NCBI GenBank assembly: GCA_041648535.1
Contig: JBAZOX010000001.1
Span: 1 to 40,147, forward strand
Length of the DNA: 40,147 bases
Direction of reading: 5' to 3'
Source: Desulfobacteria bacterium
GTDB taxonomy: Bacteria > Desulfobacterota > UBA8473
Under the pieces are notes generated by a model that saw nothing but the letters and a program-made list of their open reading frames with translations, was not told where the DNA came from and did not search any database. Position numbers and translations under genes: made by a program. This document shows, one piece after another, positions 1 through 5,574 of this stretch (its first letter is position 1; every line of letters begins with the position of its first letter).

Positions 1-1124
1 GTTTGGATAAATTGCATCGCTGCTTCAAAAACGGGATTTTGATGATATGCCCTTGCTTCAATAACCCCTTGATTTACCAAAAGACAGAGAAGAGGGGCAT
101 CACCGTGATACCTCAAGCCTCCGGCATGGATGCCTGGCGGAACAAAGGTATGCCCTAATGTGTACATCATTAATAGCGGTGTCATCTGAGCAGTATCACC
201 AAAATCATAGCGGTAAGGTCCCTTGGTCAATGTGGGACATGAGGTAGGTTCCACCGCGATTATCCTCATGTCTTTACCGTTCAACTTGTCTTTGACAAAC
301 GGGAAACAGAACCCGGCAAAGTTGCTTCCTCCGCCAACACAGCCAATCAAAACATCCGGGGATTCCCCTGCTAATTTCAATTGTTCCTTTACCTCTAAAC
401 CGATAATGGTTTGATGTAATAAGACATGGTTTAGCACACTCCCCAGAGAATATTTAGTATCATCGTGGGTAGCTGCATCCTCTACCGCTTCTGAAATGGC
501 CATGCCGAGACTACCCAATGTGTTTGGATCTTTCTCTAAAATACTCCTTCCTGCATTGGTTAAGTTGGTCGGAGATGGATGCACCGTTGCCCCCCATGCG
601 TGCATCAAAGACCTCCGGTAAGGTTTTTGCTCATAGCTCACCTTTACCATGTAGACGGTACATTCTATATCAAACAGTTTACAGGCAAAAGCCAGAGCGC
701 TTCCCCATTGCCCTGCCCCTGTCTCTGTAGCAATCCTTTTCACCCCTTCTTTCTTATTGTAATATGCCTGAGCAACAGCAGTGTTTGGTTTGTGACTTCC
801 GGCAGGGCTCACGCTCTCGTTCTTATAGTATATCCTGGCAGGGGTTCCCAATGCCTTTTCCAACCTTTTTGCCCTATGCAAAGGGGTTGGTCTCCACAGC
901 CGGTAAATATCCAGAATTTCATCCGGTATCTCTATCCAGCGCTCCTGACTTACCTCTTGTTCTATAAGCCCCATGGGAAATATTGGAGCCAGATCTTCAG
1001 GGCCTATTGGTTGGCCTGTTCCTGGATTTAATGGAGGCATAAGCGGTTTGGGCAGATCTGCCTGTACGTTATACCACTTCTGAGGCAACTCTTTTTCACT
1101 CAATAAAATCTTTGTATCTTCCAT
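1..1124 (-). CDS. trpB: Tryptophan synthase beta subunit, TrpB2-type (C-terminus runs off the window)
   Basis: Not in the ORF track because it is open at the window edge. Minus-strand ATG at 1124-1122 follows GGAGAAG. My translation is [25 protein letters not shown]...[19 protein letters not shown]...[13 protein letters not shown]...[11 protein letters not shown]. It has the PLP-lysine and GGGSN motifs and the long N-terminus typical of TrpB2. The + strand ORFs at 223-1031 are antisense shadows. Confidence 0.85.
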
Positions 1125-1225
1125 ATTCTTCTCCTTTTATACAAAAGAATTTGCTGGAAGGATATCCTTCCAGTTATCCCTAAAATCCTGTAATAAAGAA
1201 CTCTACACCACCCCCTTTATTAGTT

Positions 1226-1418
1226 GTAACTATTCAGGCACAAAGAGACAAAGGCACATAGGCACAAAGTTGTAGGAATACGATCGGAATGCAGGACATA
1301 ACCTGTCCAAATACCGCTTTGTAAACATTTTATAGGAACTTAATCAACTCATTCTCTTCAGATCTCTCGACTTTGTGCCTTTGGTGCTCTGTGCCTTTGT
1401 GCCTACCTGAGTAGTAAC
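1226..1418. repeat. Heptamer-hairpin element A (GTAACTATTCAGG ... CCTGAGTAGTAAC ends, GGCACAAAG-type arms, about 95-nt centre)
   Basis: The arms ggcacaaagagacaaaggcacataggcacaaag and ctttgtgcctttggtgctctgtgcctttgtgcc are imperfect reverse complements. The end motifs are shared with the elements at 3280, 14832, 15040, 19547 and 26098. Confidence 0.75.
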
Positions 1419-1500
1419 CCTTAGTTTAGATATGGAGAGTTTTAAAGGTCTCTCTTCAAAGATCAAGAGGACTTTCTGCTACTTCTGCCGAGAGGAAAGA

Positions 1501-1543
1501 AAACAAAAAAGCCATGGACGAAAAGGAAGAGCCCATGGCTTTT
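1501..1543 (-). terminator. Second hairpin plus U-run downstream of the trp leader (AAAAGCCAUGG / CCAUGGCUUUU)
   Basis: The + strand reads aaaagccatgg(1507-1517)...ccatggctttt(1533-1543). On the minus strand the stem is followed by UUUUUUGUUU. Confidence 0.5.
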
Positions 1544-1548
1544 GATAT

Positions 1549-1584
1549 AAAAAAGGCCGCAGGCTACAGGATTTGCCCACGGTC
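1549..1584 (-). terminator. Attenuator terminator of the trp leader
   Basis: The minus-strand RNA is GACCGUGGGC-AAAUCCUGUA-GCCUGCGGCC followed by UUUUUU. That gives a 10-bp stem with one mismatch and two G-U pairs. Its 5' arm also pairs with an upstream segment, giving the antiterminator alternative. Confidence 0.65.
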
Positions 1585-1653
1585 TTCCATTGATTTTTAT
1601 TTATTGATTATTTAGTATCGAGTGAGATGGGCGGACAAATCCCTAGTATGTAA

Positions 1654-1713
1654 TTAGTTCCACCACCACCACCAATTGCTATCGTAACTATAGGAAATCT
1701 CTTTGCCGCTCAT
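1654..1713 (-). CDS. Trp leader peptide MSGKEISYSYDSNWWWWWN (5 consecutive UGG codons)
   Basis: A 19-codon minus-strand ORF. The + strand has cca x5 at 1660-1674 and the stop is TAA at 1656-1654. It lies upstream of trpB2 on the same strand and is followed by alternative hairpins and a terminator. Confidence 0.8.
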   Translation of the reverse strand: MSGKEISYSYDSNWWWWWN

Positions 1714-1745
1714 ACTCTTAAAGCCCTTTTAATAAAGTGTAGAAT

Positions 1746-1774
1746 TCATTAGCATAATAGATCTCGATTGTCAA
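1746..1774 (-). promoter_or_regulatory. Candidate sigma-70 promoter for the trp leader transcript
   Basis: The minus strand reads TTGACA (1774-1769), a 17-nt spacer ending TGc, then TAATGA (1751-1746). This is an extended -10-like arrangement, about 33 nt upstream of the leader ATG. Confidence 0.4.
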
Positions 1775-1800
1775 GCATTTTCTGATTTATAATTTTTTTC

Positions 1801-1829
1801 TTGACAAATCAATCGTCAGTATATAAAAA
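1801..1829 (+). promoter_or_regulatory. Candidate sigma-70 promoter for the aromatic leader / DAHP synthase transcript
   Basis: TTGACA is at 1801-1806. TATAAA / TAAAAA -10 candidates fall at 1822-1829 (15-17 nt spacing). The promoter is divergent from the trp leader promoter, with 26 bp between the two -35 boxes. Confidence 0.45.
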
Positions 1830-1848
1830 GATAAGAAAGGAGTCGGTT

Positions 1849-1935
1849 ATGTTGTTTTATTTTGCAAATCTTATATTTAAGACATTTTGCTGGCGGTTTT
1901 ATTTTATCTTTATAAAGTCTGCCCAGCATCCTTGA
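1849..1935 (+). CDS. Aromatic-rich leader peptide MLFYFANLIFKTFCWRFYFIFIKSAQHP
   Basis: AAGGAG at 1837-1842 lies 6 nt before the ATG. Ten of 28 residues are aromatic (7 F, 2 Y, 1 W), clustered as FCWRFYFIF just before an antiterminator/terminator pair upstream of DAHP synthase. Confidence 0.7.
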   Translation: MLFYFANLIFKTFCWRFYFIFIKSAQHP

Positions 1936-1972
1936 ACTAGATTTGTAAAATAAAACACAACAGATCTCAAGG

Positions 1973-2014
1973 CCATGGGCAGACTGACGGTAAAACCCAT
2001 GGTTTTTTGTTTTT
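1973..2014 (+). terminator. Attenuator terminator upstream of DAHP synthase
   Basis: CCATGGG (1973-1979) and CCCATGG (1996-2002) form the stem, followed by TTTTTTGTTTTT. The 5' arm overlaps the sequence tgggcagact (1976-1985). That sequence pairs perfectly with agtctgccca (1916-1925) inside the end of the leader ORF. Confidence 0.7.
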
Positions 2015-2036
2015 ACATAGTACGTTAGTATATATT

Positions 2037-2067
2037 AAGCCATGGGTAAAAAGCTCATGGCTTTTTT
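2037..2067 (+). terminator. Second hairpin plus T-run (AAGCCATG / CATGGCTT)
   Basis: An 8-bp stem (2037-2044 / 2056-2063) with an 11-nt loop is followed by a T-run. The ATG at 2042 that opens the ORF-track entry lies inside this hairpin. Confidence 0.5.
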
Positions 2068-2080
2068 GTTTTTAAAAGGT

Positions 2081-2185
2081 GACGGCTTTGTAAAAAGTCC
2101 ATCTGCGGCGTTCCGCCTCATTCCTTCGGATTTGCGCGCCTTGCATCTGGAGCTTTTTACTGTGCCGTCTGATTTTTTTTACGAC
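2081..2185. repeat. MITE-like palindromic repeat, copy 1 (GACGGC..GTAAAAAG..TCCA..TG ends)
   Basis: It is the reverse complement of 5428-5574 at near identity, apart from a 36-nt indel. It creates the false N-terminal extension of the 2042 ORF ([28 protein letters not shown]). Confidence 0.8.
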
Positions 2186-2215
2186 TTCATCAAAAGGTTA
2201 TTCGGGAGGGGAAAG

Positions 2216-3232
2216 ATGATAATTGTAATGAAAGCAAAAGCAAAAAAAGAGGAGTTGGAGGAGGTTGTGAAGAAGATAGAAAAATTAGGTTATAAACCCC
2301 ACATTATTCAGGGGGTAGAAAGGAGTGTCATCGGAGCTGTCGGTGACGAAAGGGGAAAGGCCAAACTGCAATCTCTGGAAGTCCTTCCTGGGGTTGACAA
2401 GGTTGTGCCTATCCTTAAGCCTTATAAACTCGCCAGTCGTGACATAAAGCCAGAGGGAACTGTTGTCAGCATCGACGGCAGAGTAGAAATCGGTGGTAAT
2501 AAGATAGTAGTTATTGCAGGGCCTTGTTCTGTTGAGAGTGAGGAACAGATCATAGAGTCAGCTCATATTGTAAAAAAAGCTGGCGCAGATATTCTCCGCG
2601 GCGGTGCTTTTAAGCCCCGGACTTCTCCATACAGTTTTCAAGGCTTAGAAAAAAAAGGGCTGATCTTACTCGCTAAAGCTAAAGAGAAGGTTGGTCTCCC
2701 GGTTGTAACAGAGATCATAAACCCTAAAGACGTTGATCTGGTTGCAGAATATTCAGATATTATGCAGGTTGGGGCAAGGAATGTCCAAAACTTTGCCCTT
2801 CTGAAAAAACTGGGAAAGCATAATAAACCCATATTACTAAAACGAGGGATGTCTACCACTGTAGAGGAATTCTTGATGTCAGCAGAATACATACTCTCTG
2901 AAGGGAACAAAGACGTGATTTTGTGTGAGAGAGGCATAAGGACATTTGAAACCGCTACAAGAAATACCCTGGATTTGAGTTGCATCCCGGTTTTAAAAGA
3001 AAGGACCCATCTGCCTATAATTGTTGACCCAAGTCATGCTACAGGGTTTTGGTCATATGTAGCTCCAATGTCGTATGCAGCAATTGCAGCAGGGGCCGAT
3101 GGCCTTATGATAGAGGTGCATCCCAATCCGGAAGATGCTGAAAGCGACGGTATTCAGTCCCTGAAACCCCATAAGTTTGCCGCTTTGATGGAGAATCTAA
3201 AAGCCTATATAGCGGCAGCAGGAAGGGTGTGA
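2216..3232 (+). CDS. aroF: 3-deoxy-7-phosphoheptulonate (DAHP) synthase, type I-beta with N-terminal ACT/ferredoxin-like regulatory domain
   Basis: GGGAGGGG precedes the ATG at 2216. [29 protein letters not shown] is the regulatory domain. The catalytic core is IAGPCSVES...[11 protein letters not shown]...KRG...DPSH. Confidence 0.85.
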
Positions 3233-3279
3233 CAATTCCTTGACTTTTATGCCTTTATGATTTACCCTCTTAACAAATG

Positions 3280-3400
3280 GTAACTATTCAGGTAGGCACA
3301 GAGCAGAGCGGAGCAGGGTCGTGAATCGTGAAGCGTGAATCGATTTACGATTTACGGATTACGAATTTGTGCCTTTGCCACTTTGTGCCTGAGTAGTTAC
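3280..3400. repeat. Heptamer-hairpin element B (GTAACTATTCAGG ... CCTGAGTAGTTAC)
   Basis: The 13-nt terminal inverted repeat has one T/C difference. It has nested arms: GGCACAGAG / CTTTGTGCC outside and CGTGAAT x3 / ATTTACG x3 inside. Confidence 0.8.
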
Positions 3401-3434
3401 GTTACCCACTATTTTAAGTTCAGGGAGAAAAAGG

Positions 3435-3857
3435 ATGGAGAAAAAAGTCCTGGAGGTTTTGTCCGGCAAAATCCAAAATGACCCCTATGCACGGTTTTTA
3501 GGCATCGAATTGATAGAGATCAATACGGGCTACTCAAAATTGAGGATGCCCTTAAAGGGCTGTATGCACAATTTTGTGGGTATTGCTCATGGTGGTGCCA
3601 TCTTCAGCTTGGCAGATCACGCATTCGCAGCGGCATCAAATTCTCACGGCACACTGGCTGTCGCCTTAAATATGAGTATCACTTATATTTCTGCTCCTTC
3701 GGAAGGTTCGGTTTTAGTGGCAGAAGCGAAAGAGATAAGTTTAACTCCAAGGACAGCCTTATACAGGATAGATGTATCAACTGAGGACAATAAGCTTATT
3801 GCTTCATGTCAGGGGATTGTTTATAGGAAAAAGAACTCTATACCCGGTATTGATTGA
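3435..3857 (+). CDS. PaaI/hotdog-fold acyl-CoA thioesterase
   Basis: Carries the HGGAIFSLADHAFAAA motif typical of PaaI-family thioesterases, at 140 aa. Confidence 0.75.
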   Translation: MEKKVLEVLSGKIQNDPYARFLGIELIEINTGYSKLRMPLKGCMHNFVGIAHGGAIFSLADHAFAAASNSHGTLAVALNMSITYISAPSEGSVLVAEAKEISLTPRTALYRIDVSTEDNKLIASCQGIVYRKKNSIPGID

Positions 3858-5427: not shown

Positions 5428-5574
5428 GTCATAAAAAGTCAAAAATCAGACGGCACAGTAAAAAGCTCCAGATGTAAGGCGCGCAAATCCGAAGGAATGA
5501 GGCGTACTTACCTGTACGCTGCAATAACTGAGGATGCAGCGGAACGCCGCAGATGGACTTTTTACGAAGCCGTC
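5428..5574. repeat. MITE-like palindromic repeat, copy 2 (with 36-nt central insertion)
   Basis: It matches the reverse complement of 2081-2185, with extra tacttacctgtacgctgcaataactgaggatgcagc at 5505-5540. It creates the false N-terminal extension of the 5534 ORF. Confidence 0.8.

Follow-up and report, generated by a model that had tools for sequence, protein, structure and literature searches.

The window analysed here, the whole stretch of 40,147 nucleotides, carries close to its start a DAHP synthase gene and, pointing the other way, a TrpB-like gene, with a short leader ORF ahead of each. The genes and the elements that precede them are as follows.

1124 to the window start, minus strand: TrpB-like gene (NF009057), downstream of the Trp leader
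1654-1713, minus strand: divergent Trp leader ORF, MSGKEISYSYDSNWWWWWN followed by a stop, with five Trp codons at 1674-1660
1774-1769, minus strand: divergent -35 box, TTGACA, 26 bp from the plus-strand TTGACA
1801-1806, plus strand: promoter-like -35 box, TTGACA, with a T-run just upstream
1824-1829, plus strand: -10-like TAAAAA, 17 nt from TTGACA
1837-1842, plus strand: Shine-Dalgarno sequence AAGGAG, 6 nt ahead of the leader ATG at 1849
1849-1935, plus strand: leader peptide ORF, MLFYFANLIFKTFCWRFYFIFIKSAQHP, 28 codons plus stop, 10 of 28 residues aromatic
1891-1911, plus strand: proposed regulatory codons W R F Y F I F, at about codons 15-21
2074-2176, plus strand: MITE-like repeat element with inverted-repeat ends, between hairpin T2 and the DAHP synthase ribosome-binding site
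2216-3232, plus strand: DAHP synthase of type I-beta, carrying a ferredoxin-like (FXD) regulatory domain at its N-terminus

Aromatic amino acid synthesis begins with DAHP synthase, whose transcription is governed in the best-studied bacteria by the repressors TyrR and TrpR. That the downstream gene encodes this enzyme together with a regulatory domain, as a first-pass annotation of the DNA had proposed, is borne out by its matches to PF18152 (ferredoxin-like) and PF00793 and to the NCBIfam model NF006421. The TTGACA box, the AAGGAG sequence at 6-nt spacing and the 28-codon ORF with 10 aromatic residues all lie where that annotation had placed them. A consensus promoter scan did not call the promoter at 1801, so the -10 assignment is a putative one; in the alignment of relatives, TAnAAn or TATAnG follows the -35 box at 17-nt spacing in every case, and the box and its T-rich upstream flank are kept in 10 of 11, independent of the upstream gene. 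The GGAG of the leader Shine-Dalgarno sequence is invariant in that alignment, and its distance from the start codon (ATG or GTG) is in the normal range, about 6-9 nt, in 10 of the 11; the sequence of L005, with 14 nt between the two, has poor spacing. The leader ORF has the highest aromatic fraction among the 352 ATG-initiated ORFs of 20-60 amino acids in the 40-kb window. At least 10 aromatic codons were reached by 2.3% of dinucleotide shuffles of the ORF, and by 0.7% when the frame also had to be stop-free, figures to be read with the T-rich composition in mind, which inflates the number of Phe codons. Leader codons 3-5 and 10 include aromatic ones too, and a stall there would promote termination.

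The comparison set consisted of 11 related contigs, all MAG-derived and uncultured, with DAHP synthases 82-99% identical and enough upstream sequence. The leader unit lies directly 5' of DAHP synthase in all 11, and what precedes the unit takes at least four forms (a TrpB-like gene, trpE/G, an acyl-CoA-dehydrogenase-like fragment, and others). Retention of the leader ORF had been set beforehand as a test of the proposal, and the frame proved open in 11/11: gaps inside the ORF in the MAFFT nucleotide alignment measure 3, 3 and 6 nt, all multiples of three, and those after it 1, 2, 8 and 11 nt, that is, arbitrary lengths. A Y-[F/Y]-x-F cluster is invariant and has been expanded in frame to YYYF in L162 and to FYYYYF in L169; elsewhere there are synonymous TTT/TTC changes and exchanges of F and Y, with the aromatic character retained. 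Of the proposed sensing of Phe, Tyr and Trp, the Tyr/Phe core thus stands, but Trp cannot be universal, its codon being found in eight of the leaders and missing from three. The N-terminal half, MLFYFxNLIFK, is also conserved; the C-terminus and the position of the stop vary freely (28-35 codons) around a fixed Y/F cluster and RNA switch. The leader was not present in relatives that are at most 76% identical (L167, L168, L006-L008, L085, and L131), of which L168 retains only the TTTTTCTTGACAA box. Searching for proteins identical to the DAHP synthase of the window gave one contig only, 1.2 kb long. By sequence comparison, the unit is conserved with the DAHP synthase gene and not with its neighbourhood.

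The divergent leader has the same architecture as that of DAHP synthase: its antiterminator pairs 1643-1628 with 1580-1568, its terminator lies at about 1588-1551, and 1543-1507 forms a CCAUGG hairpin. The first-pass annotation had described the two units as a bidirectional aromatic control region with -35 boxes 26 bp apart. The spacing is as given, and the back-to-back Trp leader does recur among the relatives, but it is not an obligatory partner, being absent from L002, L005, L083, L164, L169, and L171.

RNA from the plus-strand unit can be divided into the following elements, of which the 1:2 anti-antiterminator and the long covarying stem P0 enclosing the ORF had been missed at first reading.

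1852-1872, plus strand: 5' arm of the long stem P0 (ORF codons 2-8), pairing with 1939-1963 in minimum free energy (MFE) folds and RNAalifold
1889-1903, plus strand: segment 1, 5' arm of the anti-antiterminator (codons C14-Y18), pairing with 1912-1927
1912-1927, plus strand: segment 2, pairing with segment 1 or, via 1916-1925, with segment 3
1939-1963, plus strand: 3' arm of P0, just past the leader stop (MFE folds, RNAalifold)
1967-1985, plus strand: segment 3, the T1 5' arm AAGGCCAUGGG plus CAGACU, nearly invariant in relatives
1969-2014, plus strand: terminator T1, stem 1969-1979 with 1995-2005, 15-nt loop, U-run 2003-2014
1993-2003, plus strand: segment 4, the T1 3' arm, which may instead pair with the T2 5' arm 2037-2047
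2037-2073, plus strand: terminator-like hairpin T2, AAGCCAUGGGU / AGCUCAUGGCUU, 5-nt loop, U6-G-U5, called by the terminator scan

Folding of 1835-2075, which the first-pass annotation had suggested as a check, gave a z-score of -7.4, and 0/200 shuffles folded as well. In P0, both sides have changed in 9 of 23 pairs; there are 18 cells with both-side changes against 8.7 in shuffles, a count reached by 0/500 shuffles. P0 and the 1:2 hairpin together make up a -41.7 kcal/mol rod, in which part of the Shine-Dalgarno sequence and the AUG are paired as well, and an independent RNAalifold consensus recovered the long leader hairpin, T1 and T2, with 10 compensatory pairs. The 1:2 anti-antiterminator alone is worth -14.4 kcal/mol, and about 80% of its cells are paired in relatives. 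The competing antiterminator, 2:3, comprises 10 + 6 bp (1976-1985 with 1916-1925 and 1967-1972 with 1930-1935). Its longer helix had been noted at first reading as a 10-bp pairing that overlaps the T1 5' arm, and it is indeed exact, agtctgccca at 1916-1925 being the reverse complement of tgggcagact at 1976-1985; a GC-rich perfect 10-bp complement arose in 12 of 3,000 shuffles of 1836-2075. The antiterminator region comes to -31.3 kcal/mol. Persistence of the antiterminator/terminator overlap in homologues had been named as another test, and the overlap is found in all 11, with 92.7% of cells paired in the outer antiterminator helix and 98% in the T1 and T2 stems; in L162 the antiterminator is mismatched at two positions. 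Because the sequence hardly changes in the antiterminator or in either terminator stem, these helices offer conservation with essentially no covariation.

T1 has at its core CCATGGG (1973-1979) paired with CCCATGG (1996-2002), then T6-G-T5 (2003-2014), as first annotated. It measures about -15 kcal/mol and is followed by a U-run in 10 of 11 relatives, L083 having none; with more than 8 nt in its loop, it escaped the terminator scan. Which structure forms in which state was computed from MFE folds of the RNA available with polymerase on the T1 U-run, masked for the ribosome, in the 11 relatives. T1 was present in the MFE fold of 10/11 when no ribosome was placed and of 11/11 with the ribosome at the leader stop, and the antiterminator appeared in seven of 11 with the ribosome stalled at the aromatic codons. 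The ribosome logic first put forward, with termination from the stop codon and antitermination from the stall, is upheld by these folds to that extent. The stalled-state equilibrium fold still prefers T1 in L171, L164, L162, and L169, so these four would need a kinetic switch.

What we observe directly is the set of sequence elements and how they are conserved, that P0 covaries, and that the computed fold depends on the ribosome state. Promoter use, translation of the leader, stalling, termination and its relief are what we infer, and together they would operate as follows. Transcription would start a few bases 5' of the Shine-Dalgarno sequence, and a ribosome would occupy the leader while polymerase makes the downstream segments. 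With aromatic aminoacyl-tRNAs plentiful, the ribosome would reach the stop (1933-1935) and cover segment 2 and the CCUUGA element; segments 3 and 4 would then pair as T1, and transcription would end at about 2008-2014. If the leader were left untranslated, P0 and 1:2 would sequester segment 2 and bury the Shine-Dalgarno sequence and AUG, and T1 would again form. A stall at the W-R-F-Y-F codons (about 1891-1905) would mask segment 1 and leave segment 2 free to pair with segment 3 through all 10 + 6 bp, so that T1 would be blocked and polymerase would read on.

Polymerase would then meet T2. This hairpin (about -15.4 to -15.9 kcal/mol) is present in 10 of the relatives and absent from L169, and in seven of them its U-run lies just 24-50 nt from the DAHP synthase ATG. 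With no room for a DAHP synthase promoter behind it, T2 must also be read through; it is thus more than one of three hairpins that share a CCATGG stem, as which it had first been noted. T2 looks like a strong terminator, and its relief is not obvious. The freed T1 3' arm might transiently capture the T2 5' arm, both being CCAUGG based; alternatively, T2 may be leaky. In the window, such a 4:5 hairpin is calculated at -18.6 kcal/mol and T2 at -15.4 kcal/mol. The 4:5 hairpin is part of the MFE folds for the stalled state in the window, L022, and L164, and has 93.7% of its cells paired in relatives, with both-side changes in two pairs. Read from P(T2) and the MFE strings, however, the equilibrium test left T2 dominant in 8 of 10 relatives, so that a 4:5 relay is thermodynamically unsupported and would have to be kinetic. 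Hairpins with a CCATGG stem occur in the 40-kb window only at 1512-1538, 1973-2002, and 2040-2063, the three that had been claimed, with 0.08 pairs expected by chance.

The repeat element at 2074-2176, an insertion also overlooked at first reading, is outside the attenuator. It is the inverted repeat I9, with a second copy at 5533-5565 on the minus strand. L170 carries it at this position too; L022, L002, L003, and L004 do not. A small ORF that starts at the ATG in the CCATGG of T2, and that in L022 ends in an ATGA on the DAHP synthase start, was considered as a conserved uORF and rejected, since L002 and others either lack it or have it in another frame.

Three other explanations of these data were weighed. 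The best covariation lies in P0, which is an RNA rather than a coding feature, and this would suit a structured leader that senses a protein, small RNA or metabolite independent of translation, the ORF being incidental to T-rich RNA. The fold z-score points the same way, a stop-free frame arises by composition alone in 24% of shuffles, and the CCAUGG stems, which are conserved beyond the need for pairing and common to the Trp leader, could suggest a common binding factor. Yet indels are multiples of three within the ORF and not outside it, the Shine-Dalgarno sequence does not vary, the residues that never change are precisely those the pathway produces, with expansions that add in-frame Tyr codons, and the stop codon, segment 2 and the aromatic cluster are placed in a way that suits sensing by a ribosome. 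No Rfam family, the T-box included, matches either: searching 1000-3500 at E <= 10 gave no relevant match, only chance-level miRNA and sRNA models far below threshold, and at the gathering threshold there was none in L022, L162, or leaders of other phyla (no T-box, no leader family). On this evidence we consider a translation-independent leader improbable.

Somewhat less probable again, and at most a slim prospect, is an independent small gene or RNA encoding a hydrophobic, for example type-I-toxin-like, peptide, with T1 and T2 ending its transcript and DAHP synthase expressed by unregulated leak-through. The peptide is hydrophobic, its N-terminal half is conserved, a long stem hides its Shine-Dalgarno sequence and AUG, an arrangement known from type I toxin mRNAs, and two strong terminators follow. 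Against this, the unit is always found immediately 5' of DAHP synthase, whichever of the four or more contexts surrounds it, and leaves that gene no space for a promoter of its own; the C-terminus and stop position are free to vary where the Y/F cluster and RNA switch are fixed; the N-terminal conservation is accounted for by the covarying stem P0; and a conserved 10 + 6 bp antiterminator over the T1 5' arm would have no role. As for a type I toxin-antitoxin pair, the locus is tied to DAHP synthase, and the promoter and terminator scan gave no conserved antisense promoter or terminator. T-rich DNA readily yields Phe, Tyr and Ile codons, and the CCATGG palindrome pairs with any copy of itself, so a functionless chance arrangement in an AT-rich intergenic region could be imagined; it is scarcely credible given conservation across relatives with up to 18% DAHP synthase protein difference and different contexts, the P0 covariation and the shuffle statistics, and appears already effectively refuted by the comparative data.

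We therefore favour a ribosome-mediated transcription attenuator of the classical leader-peptide kind, which would probably tune DAHP synthase to charged tRNA-Tyr and tRNA-Phe and, in most relatives, tRNA-Trp as well. A short ORF, a cluster of end-product codons, T1 and T2, and the exclusive pairings 2:3 and 1:2 fit that class. More tentatively, and with the odds rather against it, a single stall may relieve two tandem terminators through a six-segment CCAUGG relay (2:3, then 4:5, then no T2), a modular "double-lock" design shared with the Trp leader, which closes with a hairpin of the T2 type. Similar aromatic leader ORFs recur before FXD-type DAHP synthases in Acidobacteriota, Actinomycetota, and other phyla and, on the same tentative reading, would make up a widespread, undescribed aro attenuator class absent from Rfam; the Acidobacteriota and Actinomycetota leaders are of the CCCACUCG-terminator type. 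Aromatic ORF matches in L028 and L029 were set aside, as reading frame and peptide, read without gene annotation, apparently place them inside the 3' end of the upstream gene.

The finding changes no principle of gene regulation; most likely, an uncultured lineage of the sulfate-reducer type here adds one more case to a mechanism already known. To our knowledge, leader-peptide attenuation of the DAHP synthase step has been shown only in Corynebacterium, and the same solution would here be found in a Thermodesulfobacteriota-type lineage, on an enzyme with an allosteric FXD domain. Attenuator and FXD domain would thereby provide two layers of Tyr/Phe feedback, one reading tRNA charging and one the free amino acid. 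The relatives amount to a set of natural mutants (YYYY expanded, T1 stripped of its U-run, T2 lost, elements inserted) that could guide work on the coordination of tandem terminators, and the survey hints that aromatic leader peptides before FXD-type DAHP synthases are common and not yet catalogued. A literature search on tandem-terminator leader attenuators and on delta-proteobacterial aromatic attenuators found nothing specific.

The closest formal models are E. coli trpL and pheL, classical leader-peptide attenuators (Yanofsky 1981 and Zurawski 1978, as cited in PMC11802643). The four-segment logic (1:2, 2:3, 3:4), the terminator with its U-run, termination by default without translation, regulatory codons in or just before segment 1 and a stop a few nucleotides from segment 2 are all shared. 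The leader described here has no sequence or Rfam-model similarity to them, would sense a mixture of Tyr and Phe (and Trp), and adds an outer stem, P0, between the ORF start and the post-stop region and a second terminator-like hairpin. T-box and TRAP/PyrR-type attenuation in Firmicutes likewise acts on aromatic biosynthesis genes through a 5'-leader switch between terminator and antiterminator, whereas here a conserved ORF takes the place of a T-box or other Rfam match and of (G/U)AG repeats. The his leader of Salmonella and E. coli reportedly forms a six-segment chain (Johnston et al. 1980), A:B, C:D and E:F against B:C and D:E. The relay proposed here (2:3, 4:5, no T2) would likewise carry ribosome position to a distal terminator through exclusive hairpins. 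Only the last his hairpin is a terminator, whereas both 3:4 and 5:6 have U-runs here, and the arm exchange of this still unproven relay rests on one self-complementary hexamer, CCAUGG.

Nearest in target is aroR of Corynebacterium glutamicum, a Phe-Tyr-Phe leader peptide encoded ahead of aroF, which specifies DAHP synthase (Mentz et al. 2013, PMC4046766); a ribosome stall at its Phe/Tyr codons is reported to raise transcription (Neshat et al. 2014, as cited in PMC11802643). The first-pass remark that such a control region had not been seen described was thus overstated, aroR-aroF being documented in PMC4046766 and PMC11802643. Both systems have a leader ORF with a Phe/Tyr cluster directly before a DAHP synthase gene, with the same target and the same sensed amino acids. 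Homology of the two leaders, compared by layout and description only, is unlikely, given the different phylum (Actinomycetota there, Thermodesulfobacteriota-type MAGs here) and the different leader length. The leader described here is longer, at 28-35 codons, lies inside a long covarying stem and is followed by two tandem terminator hairpins. The enzymes differ too: the DAHP synthase of the window is of the I-beta type with an FXD domain, and C. glutamicum aroF we take to be of the type I-alpha class.

Each element that the first-pass annotation had listed ahead of the DAHP synthase gene is present in the sequence at the position assigned to it. These elements and the flanking genes are as follows.

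1801-1806, plus strand: promoter-like box TTGACA (sequence check)
1837-1842, plus strand: Shine-Dalgarno AAGGAG, 6 nt upstream of the ATG at 1849
1849-1935, plus strand: leader ORF of 28 codons, MLFYFANLIFKTFCWRFYFIFIKSAQHP then stop (translation)
1916-1925 with 1976-1985, plus strand: perfect 10-bp complement (sequence check)
1973-1979 with 1996-2002, plus strand: hairpin T1, CCATGGG with CCCATGG, then T6-G-T5 (sequence check)
2037-2063, plus strand: hairpin T2 with its own T-run
2216-3232, plus strand: type I-beta DAHP synthase with N-terminal ferredoxin-like regulatory domain, FXD (PF18152 + PF00793; NF006421)
Minus strand, divergent from DAHP synthase: gene for a TrpB-like enzyme (NF009057)

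A chance origin of this arrangement is unlikely, since MLFYFANLIFKTFCWRFYFIFIKSAQHP has the highest aromatic fraction among the 352 ATG ORFs of 20 to 60 codons in the window, an open frame with at least 10 aromatic codons arose in only 0.7% of dinucleotide shuffles of the leader ORF bases, the GC-rich perfect 10-bp complement arose in 0.4% of shuffles of the leader region, and the fold of 1835-2075 gave z = -7.4. In addition, hairpins with CCATGG stems are confined in the 40-kb window to the aro and Trp leaders and, across all loci compared, occur only in these leaders of this clade. With every available computational test in its favor, the predicted unit of promoter box, leader ORF, and switch hairpins is most likely a leader-peptide attenuator.

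Searches guided by the protein sequence and covering genomes, metagenomes, and assemblies yielded 11 different contigs whose upstream region is complete (the window, L022, L002/L082, L003, L004, L005, L171, L083, L164, L162, and L169), all from MAGs labeled Deltaproteobacteria, Desulfobacterales, or Thermodesulfobacteriota, with DAHP synthases 82 to 99% identical to the window's copy. The unit lies immediately upstream of DAHP synthase in all 11, and the opposite-side neighbors vary (Trp leader and TrpB-like gene, Trp leader and trpE/G, an acyl-CoA-dehydrogenase-like fragment, or unrelated sequence). It was not found upstream in relatives whose DAHP synthase is 76% identical or less. One of these, contig L168 (76%; region ~1540-1650), retains a TTTTTCTTGACAA promoter box and has, instead of the leader, only a 3-codon ORF (ATG TTG AAA TAA) and a small hairpin, which may be a remnant or precursor of the leader. 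In the MAG containing L003, another DAHP synthase of the FXD type is encoded (L029, contig JACQWO010000007.1; 62% identical) that lacks a leader of this type and, from its reading frame, apparently follows directly after an upstream gene; attenuator control would then extend to just one paralogue of the pair.

The proposed leader ORF proved to be conserved: its frame is open in 11/11 contigs and, in an unconstrained nucleotide alignment, gaps are multiples of three inside the ORF (3, 3, and 6 nt) and 1, 2, 8, and 11 nt long after it. The GGAG of the Shine-Dalgarno sequence is invariant.

Leader peptides by contig
Window and L022: MLFYFANLIFKTFCWRFYFIFIKSAQHP
L005: MLSYFTNFIFKTIFIWRLYFSFTKSAHRLRM
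L171: MLSYFAYFTFKTIFIWQLYFSFAKSACCLRM
L083: MLFCFMNLIFKTIFSWWLYYTFIKSAHRLRVGFVK
L164: MMFCFTDLIFKTIFRSGLYYFIFIKPAHRLGGGAL
L162: ..VFYFMNLIFRVYSRLYYYFIKSAQSPEFDS
L169: ..VFYFMNFIFKTCCRLFYYYYFIKSARSPGV

Sensing of Phe, Tyr, and Trp had been suggested. The leader is predicted to be primarily a Tyr/Phe sensor, because Y-[F/Y]-x-F, directly ahead of I/T/A-K-S/P-A and enlarged by in-frame Tyr codons in two lineages, is invariant, whereas Trp occurs in 8 of the 11 peptides and so is not a universal part of the signal. Tyr and Phe also inhibit FXD-type DAHP synthases, as known from the Thermotoga enzyme.

RNAalifold, given no guiding input, returned a long leader hairpin, T1, and T2, with 10 compensatory pairs. 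The long stem, P0 (1852-1872 with 1939-1963), pairs ORF codons 2 to 8 with the stretch just after the stop and has both-side changes in 9/23 pairs; its 18 doubly changed cells compare with 8.7 in column shuffles and were reached by 0/500 shuffles. Nested within P0 is the hairpin of segments 1 and 2 (1889-1903 with 1912-1927), and together they also pair part of the Shine-Dalgarno sequence and AUG. The antiterminator (1916-1925 with 1976-1985, plus 1930-1935 with 1967-1972) covers the whole 5' arm of T1, and its region folds at -31.3 kcal/mol versus approximately -15 for T1. This overlap recurs in the relatives, with the antiterminator outer helix 92.7% paired and T1/T2 98% paired; as these helices are nearly invariant, their evidence is conservation rather than covariation.

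To mimic the ribosome, the RNA emerged with polymerase on the T1 U-run was folded for each of 11 relatives, its 5' end being cut to represent no ribosome, a ribosome stalled four codons ahead of segment 2, or a ribosome at the stop codon. T1 formed in 10/11 without a ribosome and, as the first-pass annotation had anticipated, in 11/11 with the ribosome at the stop. Its other expectation, that stalling favors the antiterminator, held in 7/11; in L171, L164, L162, and L169, T1 was the more stable at equilibrium, and the antiterminator would have to work kinetically, as it could because it is transcribed before T1. The antiterminator core lies 16 to 17 nt downstream of the Y18 codon and the stop lies 6 nt beyond segment 2 in the window, distances consistent with the proposed switch. 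In relatives with longer ORFs, a terminating ribosome would sit between segments 2 and 3 (1967-1985) and still block their pairing. Without translation, P0 and the 1:2 hairpin would impose a default "off" state, and their pairing of the Shine-Dalgarno sequence and AUG may restrict the leader to one translation round.

In seven relatives only 24 to 50 nt separate the T2 U-run from the DAHP synthase ATG, so transcription must cross both hairpins, and T2 is kept in 10/11 relatives; a constitutive T2 would only lower the expression level, and its conservation therefore needs explaining. Since CCAUGG is self-complementary, the T1 3' arm (1993-2003), once freed, would be able to capture the T2 5' arm (2037-2047). 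This 4:5 pairing equals or exceeds T2 in stability in 6/10 relatives, is part of the "stalled" MFE structure in three cases (window, L022, and L164), and has two pairs changed on both sides. Moreover, L083 has lost the T1 U-run (CCUUGUUCAG) and retains the rest of the unit, so regulation there could reach the gene through T2 only. Against such a relay, T2 still forms with P >= 0.94 in 8/10 relatives in the equilibrium ensemble when segment 3 is removed, L169 lacks any T2, and the equivalent pairing in the Trp leader is weak (-12 versus -19 kcal/mol). A kinetic relay is thus a tentative and somewhat doubtful reading; alternatively, T2 may serve as a back-up terminator that leaks, or its hairpin may depend on a factor.

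The L083/L172/L173 lineage keeps the T1 stem (~1030-1065 in L083) without its U-run and with T2 intact, and from its sequence would be a natural variant in which termination is possible at T2 only. In L169, a 23S rRNA intervening-sequence-protein gene (PF05635; ~330-800) bordered by GCCGTTCACGG-type inverted repeats stands between T1 and DAHP synthase in T2's place; a related repeat fragment occupies the same position in L005.

On the minus strand, upstream of the TrpB-like gene, the leader MSGKEISYSYDSNWWWWWN then stop (1713-1654) carries five Trp codons and would belong to a complete Trp attenuator of textbook type (1507-1775), with the following predicted parts.

1774-1769, minus strand: TTGACA promoter box
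1643-1628 with 1580-1568, minus strand: antiterminator
~1588-1551, minus strand: terminator
1543-1507, minus strand: second CCAUGG hairpin with U-run, downstream of the terminator

Its Trp codons vary among relatives (three in L003, W-C-W-W in L022, four in L162), and in L162 it precedes trpE/G.

A MITE-like element (2074-2176; ~100 nt), whose ends GACGGCTTTGTAAAAAG ... CTTTTTACTGTGCCGTC are inverted repeats, separates the attenuator from the ribosome-binding site of DAHP synthase. L170 has the element at this site, whereas L022, L002, L003, and L004 lack it there; another copy (5533-5565, minus strand) precedes the gene at 5534. Another family, of GTAACTATTCAGGCACAAAG...-type inverted repeats with GTGCCTTTG repeats, occurs between the Trp leader and TrpB-like gene (1226-1430; absent in L022) and downstream of DAHP synthase (3268-3400).

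Outside the clade, an ATG ORF with at least four aromatic residues in a window of six preceded FXD-type DAHP synthase genes in 19/140 regions, compared with 4/140 on the reverse complement and 2/136 downstream. Several are followed by a hairpin and U-run and are conserved within their own groups: MAFYGFYFYWRWAGR (Terriglobia MAG), MMFHAFSFRFWYLT and relatives (Bryobacterales), MLCAAPFSFRYRFYF (Acidimicrobiia), and MANQINRNFWGYYYAFFGKEVSLSCFS (three contigs). Several from other phyla have a CCCACUCG..CGAGUGGG terminator in common. Such aromatic-rich leader ORFs with hairpin and U-run, unrelated to the one in the window and from Terriglobia, Bryobacterales, Acidimicrobiia, and other groups, lie at L042 3794-3841, L104 2137-2187, L052 2108-2152, L050 3841-3885, L053 3865-3912, L074 3792-3875, L157 25-108, and L011 3808-3891. 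None of the other-phyla leaders is in Rfam. Given the excess over controls, aromatic leader peptides seem to be common, and uncatalogued, before FXD-type DAHP synthase genes. This apparent breadth, together with the tandem-terminator question and the natural variant series, is the main value of the system.

In its logic, the switch follows the E. coli trpL and pheL attenuators. The region had been put forward as not previously described; however, leader-peptide control of a DAHP synthase gene is known from Corynebacterium glutamicum aroR, the closest functional precedent, which lies upstream of aroF. Its Phe-Tyr-Phe leader peptide was found by RNA-seq (PMC4046766), it is reported to increase transcription when Phe is limiting (Neshat et al. 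2014, as summarized in PMC11802643), and it has already been deleted by strain engineers (PMC7356990). As our leader matched no Rfam family and these precedents exist, it is a new family with an already known mechanism.
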